NCBI GenBank assembly: GCA_964373795.1
Contig: CAYJVY010000018.1
Coordinates: 1-11,793, forward strand
Length of the DNA: 11,793 nt
DNA from: an uncultured archaeon
GTDB lineage: Archaea > Iainarchaeota > Iainarchaeia > Iainarchaeales > DATDZZ01
Direction: 5' to 3'
Made by a program: the position numbers and the translations under genes. The notes under the pieces were generated by a model that saw nothing but the letters and a program-made list of their open reading frames with translations, made no database searches and had not been told where the DNA came from. Of the stretch, positions 1-6,377 are shown in pieces. Positions within the stretch are counted from its first letter, which is position 1, and every line of letters begins with the position of its first letter.

Positions 1-204
1 GGGCATTGCGCTTGCCGCGCGAGACTACAGCTGAAGGCCGACGTAGGCATCGCGCTCGCAGGCGTGACCACGACTGAATGCCCATACAGGCAGTCGCGCT
101 TACCGGGTTTCGCCCTTGCCGGGCGATCGACACGTCAGGCGTCTCGCATCTGCCTGGCGCCTCGTACTCGCCAGACGCCTCGTACTCGCCGGACGTGACG
201 GCGG
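1..204. repeat. GC-rich mosaic repeat island A, truncated by the left window edge
   Basis: GC-rich block ends abruptly at 204 against AT-rich DNA. Positions 1-37 are the exact reverse complement of 6257-6293 in island C. It contains ctgaaggccgacgt (31-44), also present in island B. It has a tandem 18-nt repeat, gcctcgtactcgcc[a/g]gac, at 159-176 and 177-194, and a hairpin cgccc-ttgcc-gggcg at 111-125. Confidence 0.8.
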
Positions 205-212
205 TTTTAAAA
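205..212 (+). promoter_or_regulatory. TATA-like box (ttttaaaa) about 27 nt upstream of the ATG at 236; probably a leaderless transcript
   Basis: The A/T octamer directly abuts the end of island A. There is no Shine-Dalgarno-like GGTG between it and the ATG. The spacing matches the other genes in the window. Confidence 0.35.
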
Positions 213-3159: not shown

Positions 3160-3942
3160 TCATCTAACGTATGTTAATCCTTCTTTTGGGGTTTCCTCTT
3201 CTTCTTGAGAGGCCTCCATTTGTTCTGCTAATTGCTTGAATGCTTTTTCAATTTCTTTTGCTTCCTTAGTTATTTTGTCTAATTTTACAGTGAAACCATA
3301 TTTTTTCATTAATAATTCTAGTAATGCTTTTGCTGCTCCTGGATCTCCATAAATCAGTTTTGCATTTGTTTCACCCATTAAACAACAGCCTTCCAAGCCA
3401 TGTTGCAAGCCAATTCCAAGCAATAAACCTGCAGCTCCTGAAATCAATCCTTCAGGCTTGTCTTCTTTTGCTCCAACTTCAGTAAACTCTGTTAAAATTT
3501 TTTTACTAGTTGCTGCAACAATTATTTGAGGATTGTTTTCAAGCCTTGCATCCCCAACATTTAATCCAGCTAAAGTAATAATTTTTGCAACCCCAAGTTT
3601 TTTACATGCTTCAATAATTTTTTCTGCAAACTCAAAGTGTTCTTCAGCAGATCCAACTCTATAATCCAATGCTGGTTGAACAGGGCCAGCCAAAAAAACA
3701 AAGTCTTGATCTTTTAAAGAATAATAATATAATTCGTCTTTAATTAATTCAATTAAACCATTCTTTGTATGCACTGAAGGAGGAAAAGAATCAGAAAAGA
3801 TTTCAGCAAACTTTACTGCCTTAAATTCTTTCAATAAATAATCTACAACTATTTTTCCAACTAATCCAATTCCAGGCAATCCAGTAAACATTATTGCATT
3901 TTTCAGTTTTAATTCTTTTAAAAATTTTATTTTAGTAGGCAT
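3160..3942 (-). CDS. PAC2-family proteasome assembly chaperone-like protein
   Basis: MPTKIKFL...FTGLPGIGLVGKIVVDYL...FLAGPVQP is typical of the archaeal PAC2/COG1938 family. The track ORF (to 4077) extends 45 codons through GC-rich island B. I place the start at the ATG at 3942, where AT-rich codon usage begins and a TATA-like box lies about 30 nt upstream. Confidence 0.75.
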   Translation of the reverse strand: MPTKIKFLKELKLKNAIMFTGLPGIGLVGKIVVDYLLKEFKAVKFAEIFSDSFPPSVHTKNGLIELIKDELYYYSLKDQDFVFLAGPVQPALDYRVGSAEEHFEFAEKIIEACKKLGVAKIITLAGLNVGDARLENNPQIIVAATSKKILTEFTEVGAKEDKPEGLISGAAGLLLGIGLQHGLEGCCLMGETNAKLIYGDPGAAKALLELLMKKYGFTVKLDKITKEAKEIEKAFKQLAEQMEASQEEEETPKEGLTYVR

Positions 3943-3968
3943 ACATAAAAAATAGTTAGTGAAAAAGA

Positions 3969-3975
3969 ATTTAAA
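3969..3975 (-). promoter_or_regulatory. TATA-like box (tttaaat on the minus strand) for the PAC2-like gene
   Basis: It directly abuts the left edge of island B and lies about 30 nt upstream of the minus-strand ATG at 3942. Confidence 0.35.
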
Positions 3976-4066
3976 CCCGCGCGCAAGGTTCAGTCCTTGA
4001 AGCGCCGAGCAGCCGGCGAGGCTGAAGGCCGACGTCAGCCCCCGTGCTCGCGGGACGCAACCGCGT
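3976..4066. repeat. GC-rich mosaic repeat island B
   Basis: 66 of 90 bases are G/C by hand count (3976-4065), against 11 of 60 in the flank 3901-3960. Positions 3984-4026 match the reverse complement of 6303-6345 at 42 of 43 positions. It contains the hairpin cagcc-ggcga-ggctg (4010-4024) and the palindrome ggccgacgtcagcc (4027-4040). Confidence 0.85.
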
Positions 4067-4108
4067 TCAAAGTACAAAACATTGTAGCTGGCGGTGAACT
4101 TTCCAGCA

Positions 4109-4116
4109 ATTTAAAT
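4109..4116 (+). promoter_or_regulatory. TATA-like box (atttaaat) for priL
   Basis: About 28 nt upstream of the ATG at 4141. Confidence 0.35.
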
Positions 4117-4140
4117 TTCTTTTCATGCACTACTTTTTTT

Positions 4141-5187
4141 ATGTTGACAGTTAAAGAATTAAGGTTTGCTCAAAAATATCCTTTTACTTCAATTGCAAAG
4201 CAAATAGTGAAAGAAAAAAATCTTTCACTTGAACAAGTTCCAGAACAAGTAATTAAGAGAGCTGCTTTAATGATTTCTTTTGCTGATAAAAACAAGCTTT
4301 ACTTTCAAGAACAAATCTCTGAATCAAAAGAAATTTTGGAACAAGAAGTTCTGGCTTTTCCAATTGCAAAAATATTGCTTTCCTTGCAGTCAAACCTGTT
4401 TTTAATTGAAAAATTTTCTTTCATGATTGGCAAGTCAACCTTTAAATACATTGAATTAGAAAAAGATAGAACTCAAACAATGCTGGATTTAGCTAAGGAT
4501 TTAGAAGTAAAGTTTTCATTAGCTCAAAGAGAGGATTTTTTTGTTTCAATGGATTTACTTGAATATTTGAAAGGAAGTTTTAAAGAAGAATTCATGAAAT
4601 TAGTGAATCAAAACCTTGAAAAAGGAAGAATTTATTTAAAAGGAAATGATTTTGCAAGATTTTTAAGCGAAATAGTTGTAGAAAAAATTTTTTCATCCAT
4701 GCCAGTGGATATTTCAAGCATTCCAGACTCATATAAAGAAATTTCTTCACAGTTAAGCCAGCAAATGCATTTAATTCAAAGAAAAGAATTCACTGAAACA
4801 TTAACCGGAACAGTTGATGTAAACGCTTTTCCTCCTTGCATGACTCAAATTTACTCTGATTTAATTGAAGGAAAAAACGTTCAACACTTAGCTAGATTTG
4901 ATTTTGCTTCTTTTGCAGCAGCAGTTGGAATGCCTGCAGAACAAATAATTCAATTATACTATAAAACCCCTAATTTTAATGAAAAAACTACTAGATATCA
5001 TGTTGAAAGACTTGTAGGAAAAAAGGGTGGAAAAAAATATTCTGCTCCAAGTTGCGTAAAAGTTAAAATTCATGGATTGTGTCCAAATCCATTAATTTGC
5101 ATTCAAGAAAGCATTGTTCACCCAGTGCAATTTTATAAAAAGCATTACAAGAAAGGAGCATATAATGCAAATGAAGATAAAATTTGA
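4141..5187 (+). CDS. priL: DNA primase large (regulatory) subunit PriL
   Basis: The C-terminal Fe-S cluster signature is present: FPPCMTQIY plus YSAPSCVKVKIHGLCPNPLIC. Overall length and architecture fit archaeal PriL. The track start at 3997 lies inside island B; I prefer the ATG at 4141. Confidence 0.85.
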   Translation: MLTVKELRFAQKYPFTSIAKQIVKEKNLSLEQVPEQVIKRAALMISFADKNKLYFQEQISESKEILEQEVLAFPIAKILLSLQSNLFLIEKFSFMIGKSTFKYIELEKDRTQTMLDLAKDLEVKFSLAQREDFFVSMDLLEYLKGSFKEEFMKLVNQNLEKGRIYLKGNDFARFLSEIVVEKIFSSMPVDISSIPDSYKEISSQLSQQMHLIQRKEFTETLTGTVDVNAFPPCMTQIYSDLIEGKNVQHLARFDFASFAAAVGMPAEQIIQLYYKTPNFNEKTTRYHVERLVGKKGGKKYSAPSCVKVKIHGLCPNPLICIQESIVHPVQFYKKHYKKGAYNANEDKI

Positions 5188-5231: not shown

Positions 5232-6170
5232 ATGGTTTTAGATCAACTGCCTGAAGCAGCATCAAACTTTGTTAATGCAGCTTCAACAAATTTATCTGAA
5301 TTGTTTCCATTCTTTTTAGTAGTAATATTTATTCTCCTTGTTTTATTCTTGTTTTACAAAATTTTGTCTTTAATTATTTTTAGAGCATTAAAAGTTGTTG
5401 CAGCTGAAAAAGATCAACAGCTTTTCATGAGTATTTGGAGTTTTTTATACTATTTTATTGCATTTAGTTTTCTGTTTCTAGCTTTTTCCGGATCGTTTAC
5501 TGGATTAGGGATTGGAATAGGATTATTTACTGCTGCTTTGGGATGGGCTTTGCAAAAACCAATTACTGGAATAGCTGCTTGGCTGTTAATTATTTTTAGA
5601 AAGCCATTCAAAATAGGTGACAGAGTAATAATTGGAGGAAAAAAAGGAGACATTGTTGACTTGAATTTGTTTTACATTGTATTAAATGAAGTTGGAGGCG
5701 GAGGAACACTTGAAGGAGAAGAAAGAAGTCAAAGAAGAATTTTAATTCCAAACTACAAAGTATTCGATGAAGACATTGTTAATTATTCTCTTGTAAGTAA
5801 TTTAGTTTTAGACTCAGTTGAAGTATTAATTACTTATGAATCAAATTTAAAGCAAGCAAAAAAAATTTTGCTTGACACAGCTGAATCCATTACTCAAAAA
5901 TTTATTTTTAATACTCAAACAACCCCATATGTAAGAGCTTCATTTAAGGATTCAGGGGTTTTACTGAGTTTAAAATATTTAGTTACTGTAGAATTAAAGT
6001 CTCAAATAAAGTCAATGATTACTGAAGAAATTTTTGAAAAAATTAATAAAAGAAAAGATGTAGAAATAGCTTACCCTCATTTAGAAGTAGTCTATAAAGG
6101 ACAAACAAAACGTCGCCGTTCAGCTTGCGAAGCTGAGTCGAAAGCCGGCGAAGCTGAGTCGCTCATGTGA
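5232..6170 (+). CDS. MscS-family mechanosensitive ion channel
   Basis: N-terminal transmembrane helices are followed by ALQKPITGIAAWLLIIFRKPFKIGDRVIIGGKKGDIVDLNLFYIVL, the MscS pore-helix and beta-domain signature. The last 19 codons and the stop codon are encoded by island C. Confidence 0.8.
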   Translation: MVLDQLPEAASNFVNAASTNLSELFPFFLVVIFILLVLFLFYKILSLIIFRALKVVAAEKDQQLFMSIWSFLYYFIAFSFLFLAFSGSFTGLGIGIGLFTAALGWALQKPITGIAAWLLIIFRKPFKIGDRVIIGGKKGDIVDLNLFYIVLNEVGGGGTLEGEERSQRRILIPNYKVFDEDIVNYSLVSNLVLDSVEVLITYESNLKQAKKILLDTAESITQKFIFNTQTTPYVRASFKDSGVLLSLKYLVTVELKSQIKSMITEEIFEKINKRKDVEIAYPHLEVVYKGQTKRRRSACEAESKAGEAESLM

Positions 6171-6369
6171 GTGGCCAATATTGGTATTCAGCTTCAAAGG
6201 CTTAAGGTTTCGCGCCTTGCGACGTTACACCCGTCGAGCACGAGGGGTCACGTGACCCTTCAGCTGTAGTCTCGCGCGGCAAGCGCAATGCCCACGTGAG
6301 CATTCAGCCTCGCCGGCTGCTCGGCGCTTCAAGGGCTGAACCTTGTGCGGGCGTGACAGCGCGTAACGG
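6111..6369. repeat. GC-rich mosaic repeat island C, a composite with inverted arms
   Basis: It shares a 37-nt exact block with island A (6257-6293), a 43-nt block with island B (6303-6345) and a 33-nt block with island D (6232-6264). Its left arm (6119-6170) resembles the reverse complement of its right arm (about 6293-6340). It contains palindromes gggtcacgtgaccc (6245-6258), aatgcccacgtgagcatt (6287-6304) and ccaatattgg (6175-6184). Confidence 0.85.
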
Positions 6370-6377
6370 TTTTATAA
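6370..6377 (+). promoter_or_regulatory. TATA-like box (ttttataa) for priS
   Basis: It directly abuts the right edge of island C and lies about 28 nt upstream of the ATG at 6402. Confidence 0.35.

Follow-up and report, generated by a model that had tools for sequence, protein, structure and literature searches.

The contig CAYJVY010000018.1 of an uncultured archaeon (assembly GCA_964373795.1), whose 11,793 nucleotides are referred to here as the window, contains four short GC-rich islands, A to D, all of which are intergenic and all of which are mosaics of small hairpin units. With a probability of about 0.6, we consider that these islands belong to a lineage-restricted family of mosaic hairpin repeats, similar to the repetitive extragenic palindromic (REP) sequences and bacterial interspersed mosaic elements (BIMEs) of bacteria, or to the GC clusters of mitochondria, whose units are exchanged as blocks. 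A preliminary description of the sequence had singled out one palindrome centred on ACGT in island C, and had proposed that its arms, relative to those of its counterpart in island D, had changed by compensatory substitutions. Both the palindrome and the islands around it are considered below, as are several other explanations for their symmetry.

The islands differ sharply in composition from the DNA in which they lie. The window is 31% GC overall and 30% GC outside the islands, versus 59-68% GC inside them, and the CpG observed/expected ratio, which is 0.36 outside the islands (85 observed versus 233 expected), rises to 1.3-1.4 inside. These are literal CpG islands within an archaeal genome, and the contrast implies a recent origin, constant renewal or strong constraint. 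The host is an Iainarchaeota-like (DPANN) archaeon, very AT-rich and CpG-poor, and its genes in the window include those for PriS, PriL, GINS, PCNA, eIF2-alpha, S27e, PAC2, MscS, an MJ0538-like protein and a MazE-PIN toxin-antitoxin pair. The closest relatives of its PriS, labelled Diapherotrites or simply archaeon, have 53-56% identity.

That the islands constitute a repeat family is evident from the modules they share in both orientations, with exact runs of 37 nt between A and C, 32 nt between B and C and 23 nt between B and D, and inter-island homologies of 44-61 nt at 87-93% identity. Hairpin units of 14-21 nt recur across the four islands, in both orientations even inside a single island, and the only recurrent joint between units is TTCAGC, which has 10 sites in the islands versus 0.6 expected, at hairpin feet, in loops, in stems and in flanks. 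The tetranucleotide ACGT, each site counted once, is also present at 10 sites, versus about 2.8 expected. Perfect hairpins with a stem of at least 5 bp number 53 in eight islands, compared with 11.6 in dinucleotide-preserving shuffles (about 4.5-fold) and a maximum of 24 among 500 such shuffles, and the folding z-scores of the islands are -3.0 to -4.6 on both strands. The left part of island C (6118-6170) repeats its right part (6286-6345) in inverted and diverged form, making the whole island foldable into one long hairpin. No flanking repeats were seen around the islands of the window. Short-read contigs, among them independent ones from Logan assemblies (within A, and within D at 10371), terminate inside islands, and so does the window itself (at base 1), which implies that the units have additional copies in other parts of the genome. 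At its other end, the window stops at base 11793, inside a gene, as does the Logan contig L003.

The ACGT palindrome occupies a slot that recurs between islands. The segment at 6232-6264 in island C reads CGTCGAGCACGAGGGGTCACGTGACCCTTCAGC and that at 10361-10393 in island D reads CGTCGAGCACGAGGGCCGACGTCGGCCTTCAGC, and direct reading agrees with the preliminary description that they are identical at 27 of 33 positions and that all six differences are in the arms of the palindrome, where GTC is changed to CCG on the left and GAC to CGG on the right, with the three mirrored pairs remaining complementary. The chance of obtaining three mirrored complementary pairs from six differences placed at random among 33 positions is about 1e-6, although this is a post-hoc figure. 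Two other palindromes that had been pointed out are present as well: a variant in island B (ggccgacgtcagcc, 4027-4040), in the opposite orientation and adjoining CTGAA, whose one mismatch reads as C.A on the + strand and as T.G on the strand that corresponds to that of C and D, and a longer palindrome in island C (aatgcccacgtgagcatt, 6287-6304), which has the same register to ACGT and TTCAGC as the other copies. A fifth, degraded copy in island A had been missed. In each case, the palindrome forms the upper part of a stem of 8 bp capped by a 4-nt ACGT loop, and the three outer pairs of that stem use the TTC of the conserved TTCAGC (Table 1). The copy in island D is also found in an independent assembly.

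A gap-free alignment of the five slot copies (A2), anchored on ACGT and the downstream TTCAGC, permitted a formal count of covariation. Across the five copies, 87.5% of stem cells are paired and four of the eight pairs have changed on both sides, giving a covariation score of 0.51 versus 0.32 in shuffles, a value reached by six of 500 shuffles. Shifting the partner by 1-3 columns reduced pairing to 35-55%, with 0-1 double changes. The stem has thus been kept with different sequences in its arms.

A second hairpin family in the islands, with the loop TCGCC and the form NNNNN-TCGCC-NNNNN, exhibits the same behaviour. Its stems include CAGCC/GGCTG, CCGTC/GACGG and CCGTT/GACGG, two of its pairs covary (AU:6/CG:3 and CG:4/UA:3), and its covariation score of 0.32, versus 0.20 in shuffles, was reached by nine of 500. 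These two families uphold the proposal that self-complementarity, rather than sequence, is conserved. GC-only hairpins bound the islands, and one of these, CGCCG-GACGTGA-CGGCG in island A, differs by one compensated pair from the homologous CGCGG-GACGCAA-CCGCG in island B (4049-4065). Some units vary instead in the loop on a constant stem, e.g., CGACG-N7-CGTCG in islands C and D, and most of the other island hairpins have non-palindromic loops, such as TCGCC, AGGA, TTT, GGTT and ATAAA.

Table 1. Islands and hairpin units of the window (positions of the window; strand in the third column).
Feature	Position	Strand	Description
Island A	1..206	.	67% GC; contig begins within it; its first 37 nt match the reverse complement of island C 6257-6293 exactly
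Island B	3975..4076	.	68% GC; between divergent PAC2 and PriL; modules oriented opposite to C and D
Island C	6109..6373	.	59% GC; between MscS and PriS (tandem context)
Island D	10278..10434	.	68% GC; between convergent eIF2-alpha and PCNA genes
Slot hairpin, copy A	33..52	-	CGATGCCT-ACGT-CGGCCTTC; degraded, three unpaired cells; TTCAGC 30-35 (-)
Slot hairpin, copy B	4024..4043	-	GGGGGCTG-ACGT-CGGCCTTC; three G.T/T.G pairs on - strand; TTCAGC 4021-4026 (-)
Slot hairpin, copy C	6242..6261	+	GAGGGGTC-ACGT-GACCCTTC; 8-bp stem including one G.T; foot overlaps TTCAGC 6259-6264
Slot hairpin, copy D	10371..10390	+	GAGGGCCG-ACGT-CGGCCTTC; TTCAGC 10388-10393; also in Logan contig L003
Second slot, island C	6286..6305	+	CAATGCCC-ACGT-GAGCATTC; same ACGT/TTCAGC register (TTCAGC 6303-6308), different arms
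TCGCC-loop hairpin CAGCC-TCGCC-GGCTG	6305..6319	+	further copies at 4010-4024 (-), 10334-10348, 10390-10404 (one C.A mismatch) and 10410-10428 (7-bp stem)
TCGCC-loop hairpin, diverged copy	6140-6158	-	
Perfect 7-bp hairpin CTCGTGC-GTCGA-GCACGAG	10355..10373	+	D only; C (6226-6244) reads TACACCC-GTCGA-GCACGAG, unpairable
Terminal module TTCAGCCTCGCCGGCTGAACGGCGA	10410..10434	+	two interlocked hairpins; inverted partial copy is the left end of island C (6111-6125)
GC-only hairpin CGCCG-N7-CGGCG	187..203	+	right end of island A; type found once per island (4003, 6311, 10418)

How the arms of C and D came to differ is a separate matter from whether they still pair. Complementarity was kept, as the preliminary description had it, but three stepwise compensatory substitutions were not demonstrated. 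Over the 47 nt of homology between C and D, all 11 differences are in three contiguous blocks in otherwise identical sequence: one block coincides with the CGACG hairpin's 7-nt loop, and the other two are the 3-nt arm segments of the palindrome. Since the differences are confined in this way, block exchange or hairpin-templated copying is favoured, and a series of three successive compensated point mutations is less likely. To judge from the sequences, the C/D difference looks like an exchange of ready-made hairpin variants or a hairpin-templated conversion. The 7-nt block, with five differences from C, is in D exactly complementary to the downstream GCACGAG, and the result is a new 7-bp hairpin (10355-10373); read at face value, this is a block difference that created or destroyed a hairpin. 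Unit variants have been re-assorted between islands too, in that the right-hand neighbour CTGTAGTC... comes after the GGTCACGTGACC variant in C and after the GCCTACGTCGGC variant in A, and CCTCGCCG... comes after the slot in both D and B.

The family is not confined to the window organism. A scan of a genome collection with TTCAGCCTCGCCGGCTGNWCGGCG identified two similar islands in the archaeon SMAG_U8205 (L251, the same as L260; 34% GC), one of which ends with TTCAGCCTCGCCGGCTGAACGGCG (L260 7905-7928), a match to island D's right end at 24 of 24 nt; the remaining three matches of the scan were to one gammaproteobacterial coding gene. The best non-self match of the SMAG_U8205 SerRS, at only 61% identity, comes from a contig of run ERR3478686, a run in which the window organism is also present. 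Among the lineages sampled, the two with islands thus seem to be mutual closest relatives, though deeply diverged. The hairpin CGCCG-N4-8-CGGCG is present in every island of both lineages and does not occur in the ~100 kb of sequence at nine loci of relatives. In those nine loci (L252-L258, L265 and L268), which are contigs carrying PriS or SerRS homologues, no islands were found, and synteny is conserved with the genes tightly packed.

Within the second species, the islands vary from assembly to assembly. Six assemblies from different samples encode an identical SerRS, and the first ~200 nt downstream of its gene are nearly identical across all six; the divergence lies in the adjacent island beyond. 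L260 and L261 share one version of this island, L259 is missing 48 nt at its left boundary (a polymorphism that is a 48-nt indel, not a clean insertion), L263 and L264 have different internal units, with L264 then running into other flanking DNA, and L262 has no island at that point. For the second island, L259 and L260 share both ends and have different middles. Orthologous units differ mostly in their loops (AAGA/GAGA, TTCA/TTCAT, AGGA/GGGA), and the one stem change among them, C>T, yields a T.G pair. The island ends in this second archaeon (L260) are imperfect inverted repeats, CGCCGGAAAGATCCGGCG and CGCCGGCTGAACGGCG. Both L260 islands are also flanked on each side by an identical 13-nt direct repeat, CCTGGTGCCTAAC, and because the same repeat flanks both of them, it is no ordinary duplication. 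The second L260 island starts ~30 nt past a tRNA gene, and between the two islands lies a gene for a free-standing LAGLIDADG endonuclease (Pfam LAGLIDADG_3, 27.5 bits); the whole arrangement is in the region L260 6574-7941, equivalent to L259 11466-12812.

Islands B and D may also have had an effect on gene order. In relatives (L252, L255 and L256), the genes for PCNA and PriL are adjacent, as are those for eIF2a and PAC2, and the order in the window is PAC2(-), island B, PriL(+) and, further on, eIF2a(+), island D, PCNA(-) (3160-4141 and 9480-11158). Inverting the ~6.3-kb segment between B and D recovers the gene order of the relatives, and B and D are inverted copies of each other over 52 nt (87% identity), with the slot palindrome at the centre. 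Thus, the segment appears, from comparison of gene order, to be inverted relative to those relatives. An assembly flip or mis-join is an unlikely source of this arrangement because the longest exact repeat between B and D is only 23 nt; a second assembly (L003) confirms only the PCNA side of island D.

A model that would account for these observations is as follows. The islands are built as mosaics of short hairpin units in either orientation, bounded by GC-only hairpins, and the units exist as variants in which the stem sequence changes with self-complementarity kept, or the stem is kept and the loop varies. Islands C and D most likely carry two ready-made variants of the slot unit that were block-swapped by short-tract recombination or hairpin-templated copying. 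The elements may spread or be homogenised via a single-stranded, folded form, which would be why hairpin potential persists, and the leading candidate for that form, by analogy with REP/REPIN (REP doublets forming hairpins) and IS200/IS605-type elements, would be single-stranded DNA on which a trans-acting nuclease or transposase acts. As a side effect, the islands would be recombination substrates, and the inverted copies in B and D would flank a genuinely inverted segment. Of all this, the sequence data establish the repeat family, its mosaic construction, the excess of hairpins, the covariation, the differences between assemblies and the confinement to this lineage; mobility, the single-stranded DNA form, the enzyme and a real inversion are inferences.

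A number of observations count against this model or restrict its weight. The covariation scores draw on just five copies of the slot and nine distinct ones of the TCGCC hairpin, and several of these share ancestry (as do the flanks of the C, D and B slot copies), with the result that significance is overstated by the shuffle controls. Perfect hairpins are not in excess in island A (2 versus 1.8 expected), whole-island folding energies have no consistent strand preference and none at all in A, B and D, and the inversion is seen in one metagenome-assembled contig only. An independent assembly of palindrome copy C was sought through the MscS protein, and none is on record. No gene for a transposase, a REP-associated tyrosine transposase (RAYT), a Y1 enzyme or TnpB was found in the window, in the 12.8 kb of L259 or in L260. 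Since neither an empty site with a clean insertion footprint nor a target-site duplication was found, mobility is something that we infer only.

The strongest of the other explanations, though an unlikely one, is that the islands are transcribed with neighbouring genes, and that their GC-rich stem-loops protect 3' ends, stop transcription or regulate the flanking genes, with selection on RNA keeping the arms complementary. This would fit the wobble pairs that are tolerated on one strand: the slot hairpin has six G.U cells versus one C.A on the TTCAG strand, and the TCGCC hairpin has three U.G cells versus one C.A on the TCGCC strand. These counts trace to only about 5-6 independent events versus 2 for C.A, and the ratio of G.U to A.C is 3 versus 2 in island C's long inverted repeat. 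When both strands of nine islands were folded, the sense strand was better by 1-11 kcal/mol in island C of the window (W_C), L259a, L259b, L264 and L260a, i.e., in islands downstream of a co-directional gene, which also have more G.U pairs on that strand, L260b being the exception; the window islands A, B and D, as noted, go without a preference. There is also a bacterial precedent, in that REPs are known to act within mRNA as stem-loops of this kind (PMC3733652). Yet the units lie in both orientations within single islands, the islands occur in divergent (B), convergent (D) and tandem (C) contexts, and their content varies between assemblies in which the adjoining SerRS is identical, and for these reasons a specific RNA gene is disfavoured, while a REP-like role in transcripts is possible. 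Searches of the Rfam 15 families found none in the window at gathering score (the best, chrB-a, had 30.1 bits versus a cut-off of 43.9, E = 0.063) and none in the L260 islands, where only the neighbouring tRNA was matched. Other RNA-related candidates were examined and set aside: C/D-box small RNAs, for which CUGA motifs are present and C boxes are not; CRISPR, as there is no regular repeat-spacer pattern; and GC-rich RNA genes in the style of hyperthermophiles, since the islands are repeats of variable content that match no RNA family.

It is less probable again that the symmetry arises as a by-product of mutation, with replication stalling at GC-rich palindromes and causing intrastrand template switching or gene conversion, and neither selection nor mobility involved. 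The blockwise differences between C and D, three adjacent bases per arm in identical flanks, are what such a process would leave, as is the 7-nt block that yields a perfect hairpin in D and is unpairable in C, and many of the stems are perfect rather than merely good. What it leaves unexplained is the presence of 59-68% GC, CpG-rich DNA in a CpG-depleted genome of ~30% GC, the identical 24-nt terminal module in a lineage with 61% SerRS identity, and the retention of imperfect, wobble-bearing stems in diverged copies.

A very improbable reading is that the palindromes are duplex DNA sites for dimeric ACGT-core proteins, either a regulator or a restriction-modification enzyme, whose different or relaxed specificity allowed the arms to vary. 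All five slot copies have the same ACGT centre, this tetranucleotide is over-represented in the islands, and slot variants contain CACGTG and GACGTC, both of which are classical symmetric sites. Set against this, three of the five inner arm positions differ with identical flanks, such that no single specificity fits, most of the other hairpins have non-palindromic loops that a symmetric duplex site would not need, and wobble pairs exceed C.A mismatches on one strand. More generally, since stems covary in several hairpin families and hairpins are enriched, a single fixed protein-binding sequence is unlikely, and the argument of the preliminary description on this point is supported.

Finally, that the islands are an assembly artefact or contamination, i.e., foreign GC-rich fragments joined into an AT-rich contig, is scarcely credible, for although the source is a metagenome-assembled contig and contigs break at islands, the island-gene junctions are repeated in independent assemblies (L001/L002 for island A, L003 for island D), islands of the second species are present in six assemblies of different samples, the units were not found in plasmid, phage or viral collections, and the 24-nt module matched no GC-rich genome except for one unrelated coding gene family. 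The searches concerned were of several kinds. Five patterns run against viral collections gave chance matches or none, and islands C and D had no BLAST match among plasmids and phages. A metagenome scan with CGTCGAGCACGAGGN{8,16}CTTCAGC had all 120 of its 120 matches in GC-rich DNA (52-74% GC), and these were rejected as island copies, most being one conserved coding motif with gaps of 8 or 11 nt that was read as the Walker-B region of ABC transporters. A protein search with a 1083-aa concatenate of island reading frames had no match, nor did a 56-aa frame of island C against 1.8 billion representatives.

The islands have left marks on the genes next to them. Similarity of the MscS-like open reading frame (ORF; 5232-6170) to its homologue stops after residue 289, and its last ~20 residues are encoded by island C (6109-6170), so island C replaced or extended the 3' end of the MscS gene. 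The mechanically called ORFs 3160..4077 and 3997..5187 begin at TTG codons within island B, and the true starts are likely the ATG at 3942 (- strand) and the ATG at 4141 (+ strand); ORF calls are, in other words, inflated on both strands by the GC-rich islands (3943-4077 (-) and 3997-4140 (+)).

Elsewhere in the window, the genes for the MazE-type antitoxin (1037-1327) and PIN toxin (1266-1715) have on either side a 31-nt direct repeat whose two copies match perfectly (933-963 and 1761-1791), adjoined by a second repeat, 34 nt at 85% identity, in swapped order (region 895-963 and 1761-1865), an arrangement suggestive of a cassette having been inserted or duplicated there. PriS and GINS adjoin each other in all the relatives examined, unlike in the window, in which two small ORFs (7668-8620) with hydrophobic N-termini and without a Pfam match lie between them. 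In the long AT-rich spacer from PCNA to the last, truncated ORF, there is a G-rich stretch (11344-11413, AGGGGGGAAGAGGGGAGC...GGCTCCGCCCTCGTC), which is unlike the islands and had no Rfam match.

Among known systems, REP/BIME elements, which are mosaic hairpin clusters of alternating orientation (PMC2817692, PMC3733652), and REPINs offer one comparison. Like the islands, they are intergenic, with short GC-rich hairpin units and a conserved short foot motif (PMC3733652, PMC2817692, PMC3337134), they form alternating-orientation mosaics, and their sub-families have stems that vary yet stay paired (PMC2817692, PMC3733652). The island units conform to what defines REPs, namely imperfect palindromes of short length (20-40 bp) that occur repeatedly outside genes. 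Island C in its entirety forms a REPIN-like inverted doublet (6118-6170 pairs with 6286-6345); B and D do not. The foot motif of the islands is TTCAGC, which in the slot hairpin overlaps the base of the stem, and not the GTAG or CGTC by which REPs are tagged, unpaired, at one end of the palindrome; neither of those is consistently placed in the islands. BIMEs have a small set of conserved linkers between their units; in the islands, TTCAGC is the only recurrent joint. The island units are also far more diverse per cluster than REPs, the compositional contrast with the host (59-68% versus ~30% GC) is extreme, and no RAYT gene was seen in the window, L259 or L260. In bacteria, REPs are mobilised by RAYTs, which are Y1 HUH transposases encoded by a single-copy gene that the repeats flank.

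The GC clusters of yeast mitochondria, which are palindromic in build and whose units merge and shuffle (PMC4478555), and the repetitive hairpin-forming elements (RHE) of fungal and sponge mitochondria resemble the islands in other ways. They are GC-rich palindromic clusters in the intergenic DNA of a very AT-rich genome, with substitutions concentrated in loops, merger and shuffling of units, strain variation and recombination (PMC4478555, PMC2800124). Units that merge and shuffle between strains in AT-rich intergenic DNA, the behaviour by which GC clusters are recognised, are found here as well; the resemblance is in behaviour only, as the host is a cellular archaeal chromosome and not an organelle, the sequences are unrelated, and the AG target duplication of yeast was not seen. 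A neighbouring homing endonuclease has been proposed as the mobiliser of GC clusters, and the second archaeon has its LAGLIDADG gene between two islands.

Two classes of mobile element also invite comparison. Elements derived from IS200/IS605 have hairpins near their ends with a conserved 5-6-nt motif beside them, and no terminal duplication; by analogy, the TTCAGC-type motif of the islands could be a cleavage or target site. Elements of this type lack inverted terminal repeats and insert 3' of a fixed target of 4-5 nt; the islands likewise have hairpins at their ends. In IS200/IS605, tandem arrays would arise if the end of an element recreates the target. The transposition itself is by a single-strand 'peel and paste' mechanism (PMC6006769). 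Unlike for these elements, no TnpA or TnpB gene was found in the window, L259 or L260, and TTCAGC is not at one fixed position. MITEs (miniature transposable elements with inverted repeats), which are at high density in some DPANN genomes (PMC11602168), are like the islands in being small, non-coding, intergenic and transposase-free, and the island ends in L260 are imperfect inverted repeats. The islands differ from MITEs in their variable mosaic interior and a composition far from that of the host, and in that no target-site duplication was found.

REPINs have been stated not to be detected in archaea (bioRxiv 10.1101/2021.07.10.451892), and no description of such hairpin-repeat elements in DPANN archaea was found in the literature. 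A bolder proposal, which we put forward tentatively and hold to be clearly less probable than the general reading given at the outset, is that the islands are the first REPIN/BIME-like hairpin replicator in archaea, one whose GC-rich single-strand hairpin elements would be spread and homogenised by a trans-acting nuclease (Y1 HUH or the LAGLIDADG enzyme encoded between two islands), and which would be shared across deeply diverged members of an Iainarchaeota (DPANN) lineage, vary between strains and drive inversions at replication-gene loci; such a replicator would equally resemble the mitochondrial GC clusters.

REPIN-type repeats have been described as bacterial, and GC clusters as an organellar oddity; if the islands are what we take them to be, a DPANN archaeon is a third setting. 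Were it a comparable system, it would offer a natural comparison for the origin of such elements, for base composition at odds with that of the host and for the mobilising enzyme. The islands also have practical consequences, as they break short-read assemblies and distort gene calls (the MscS tail and two false upstream starts), which bears on binning and on the reconstruction of DPANN genomes. They may mediate inversions, and, being hypervariable, they could serve as strain markers.

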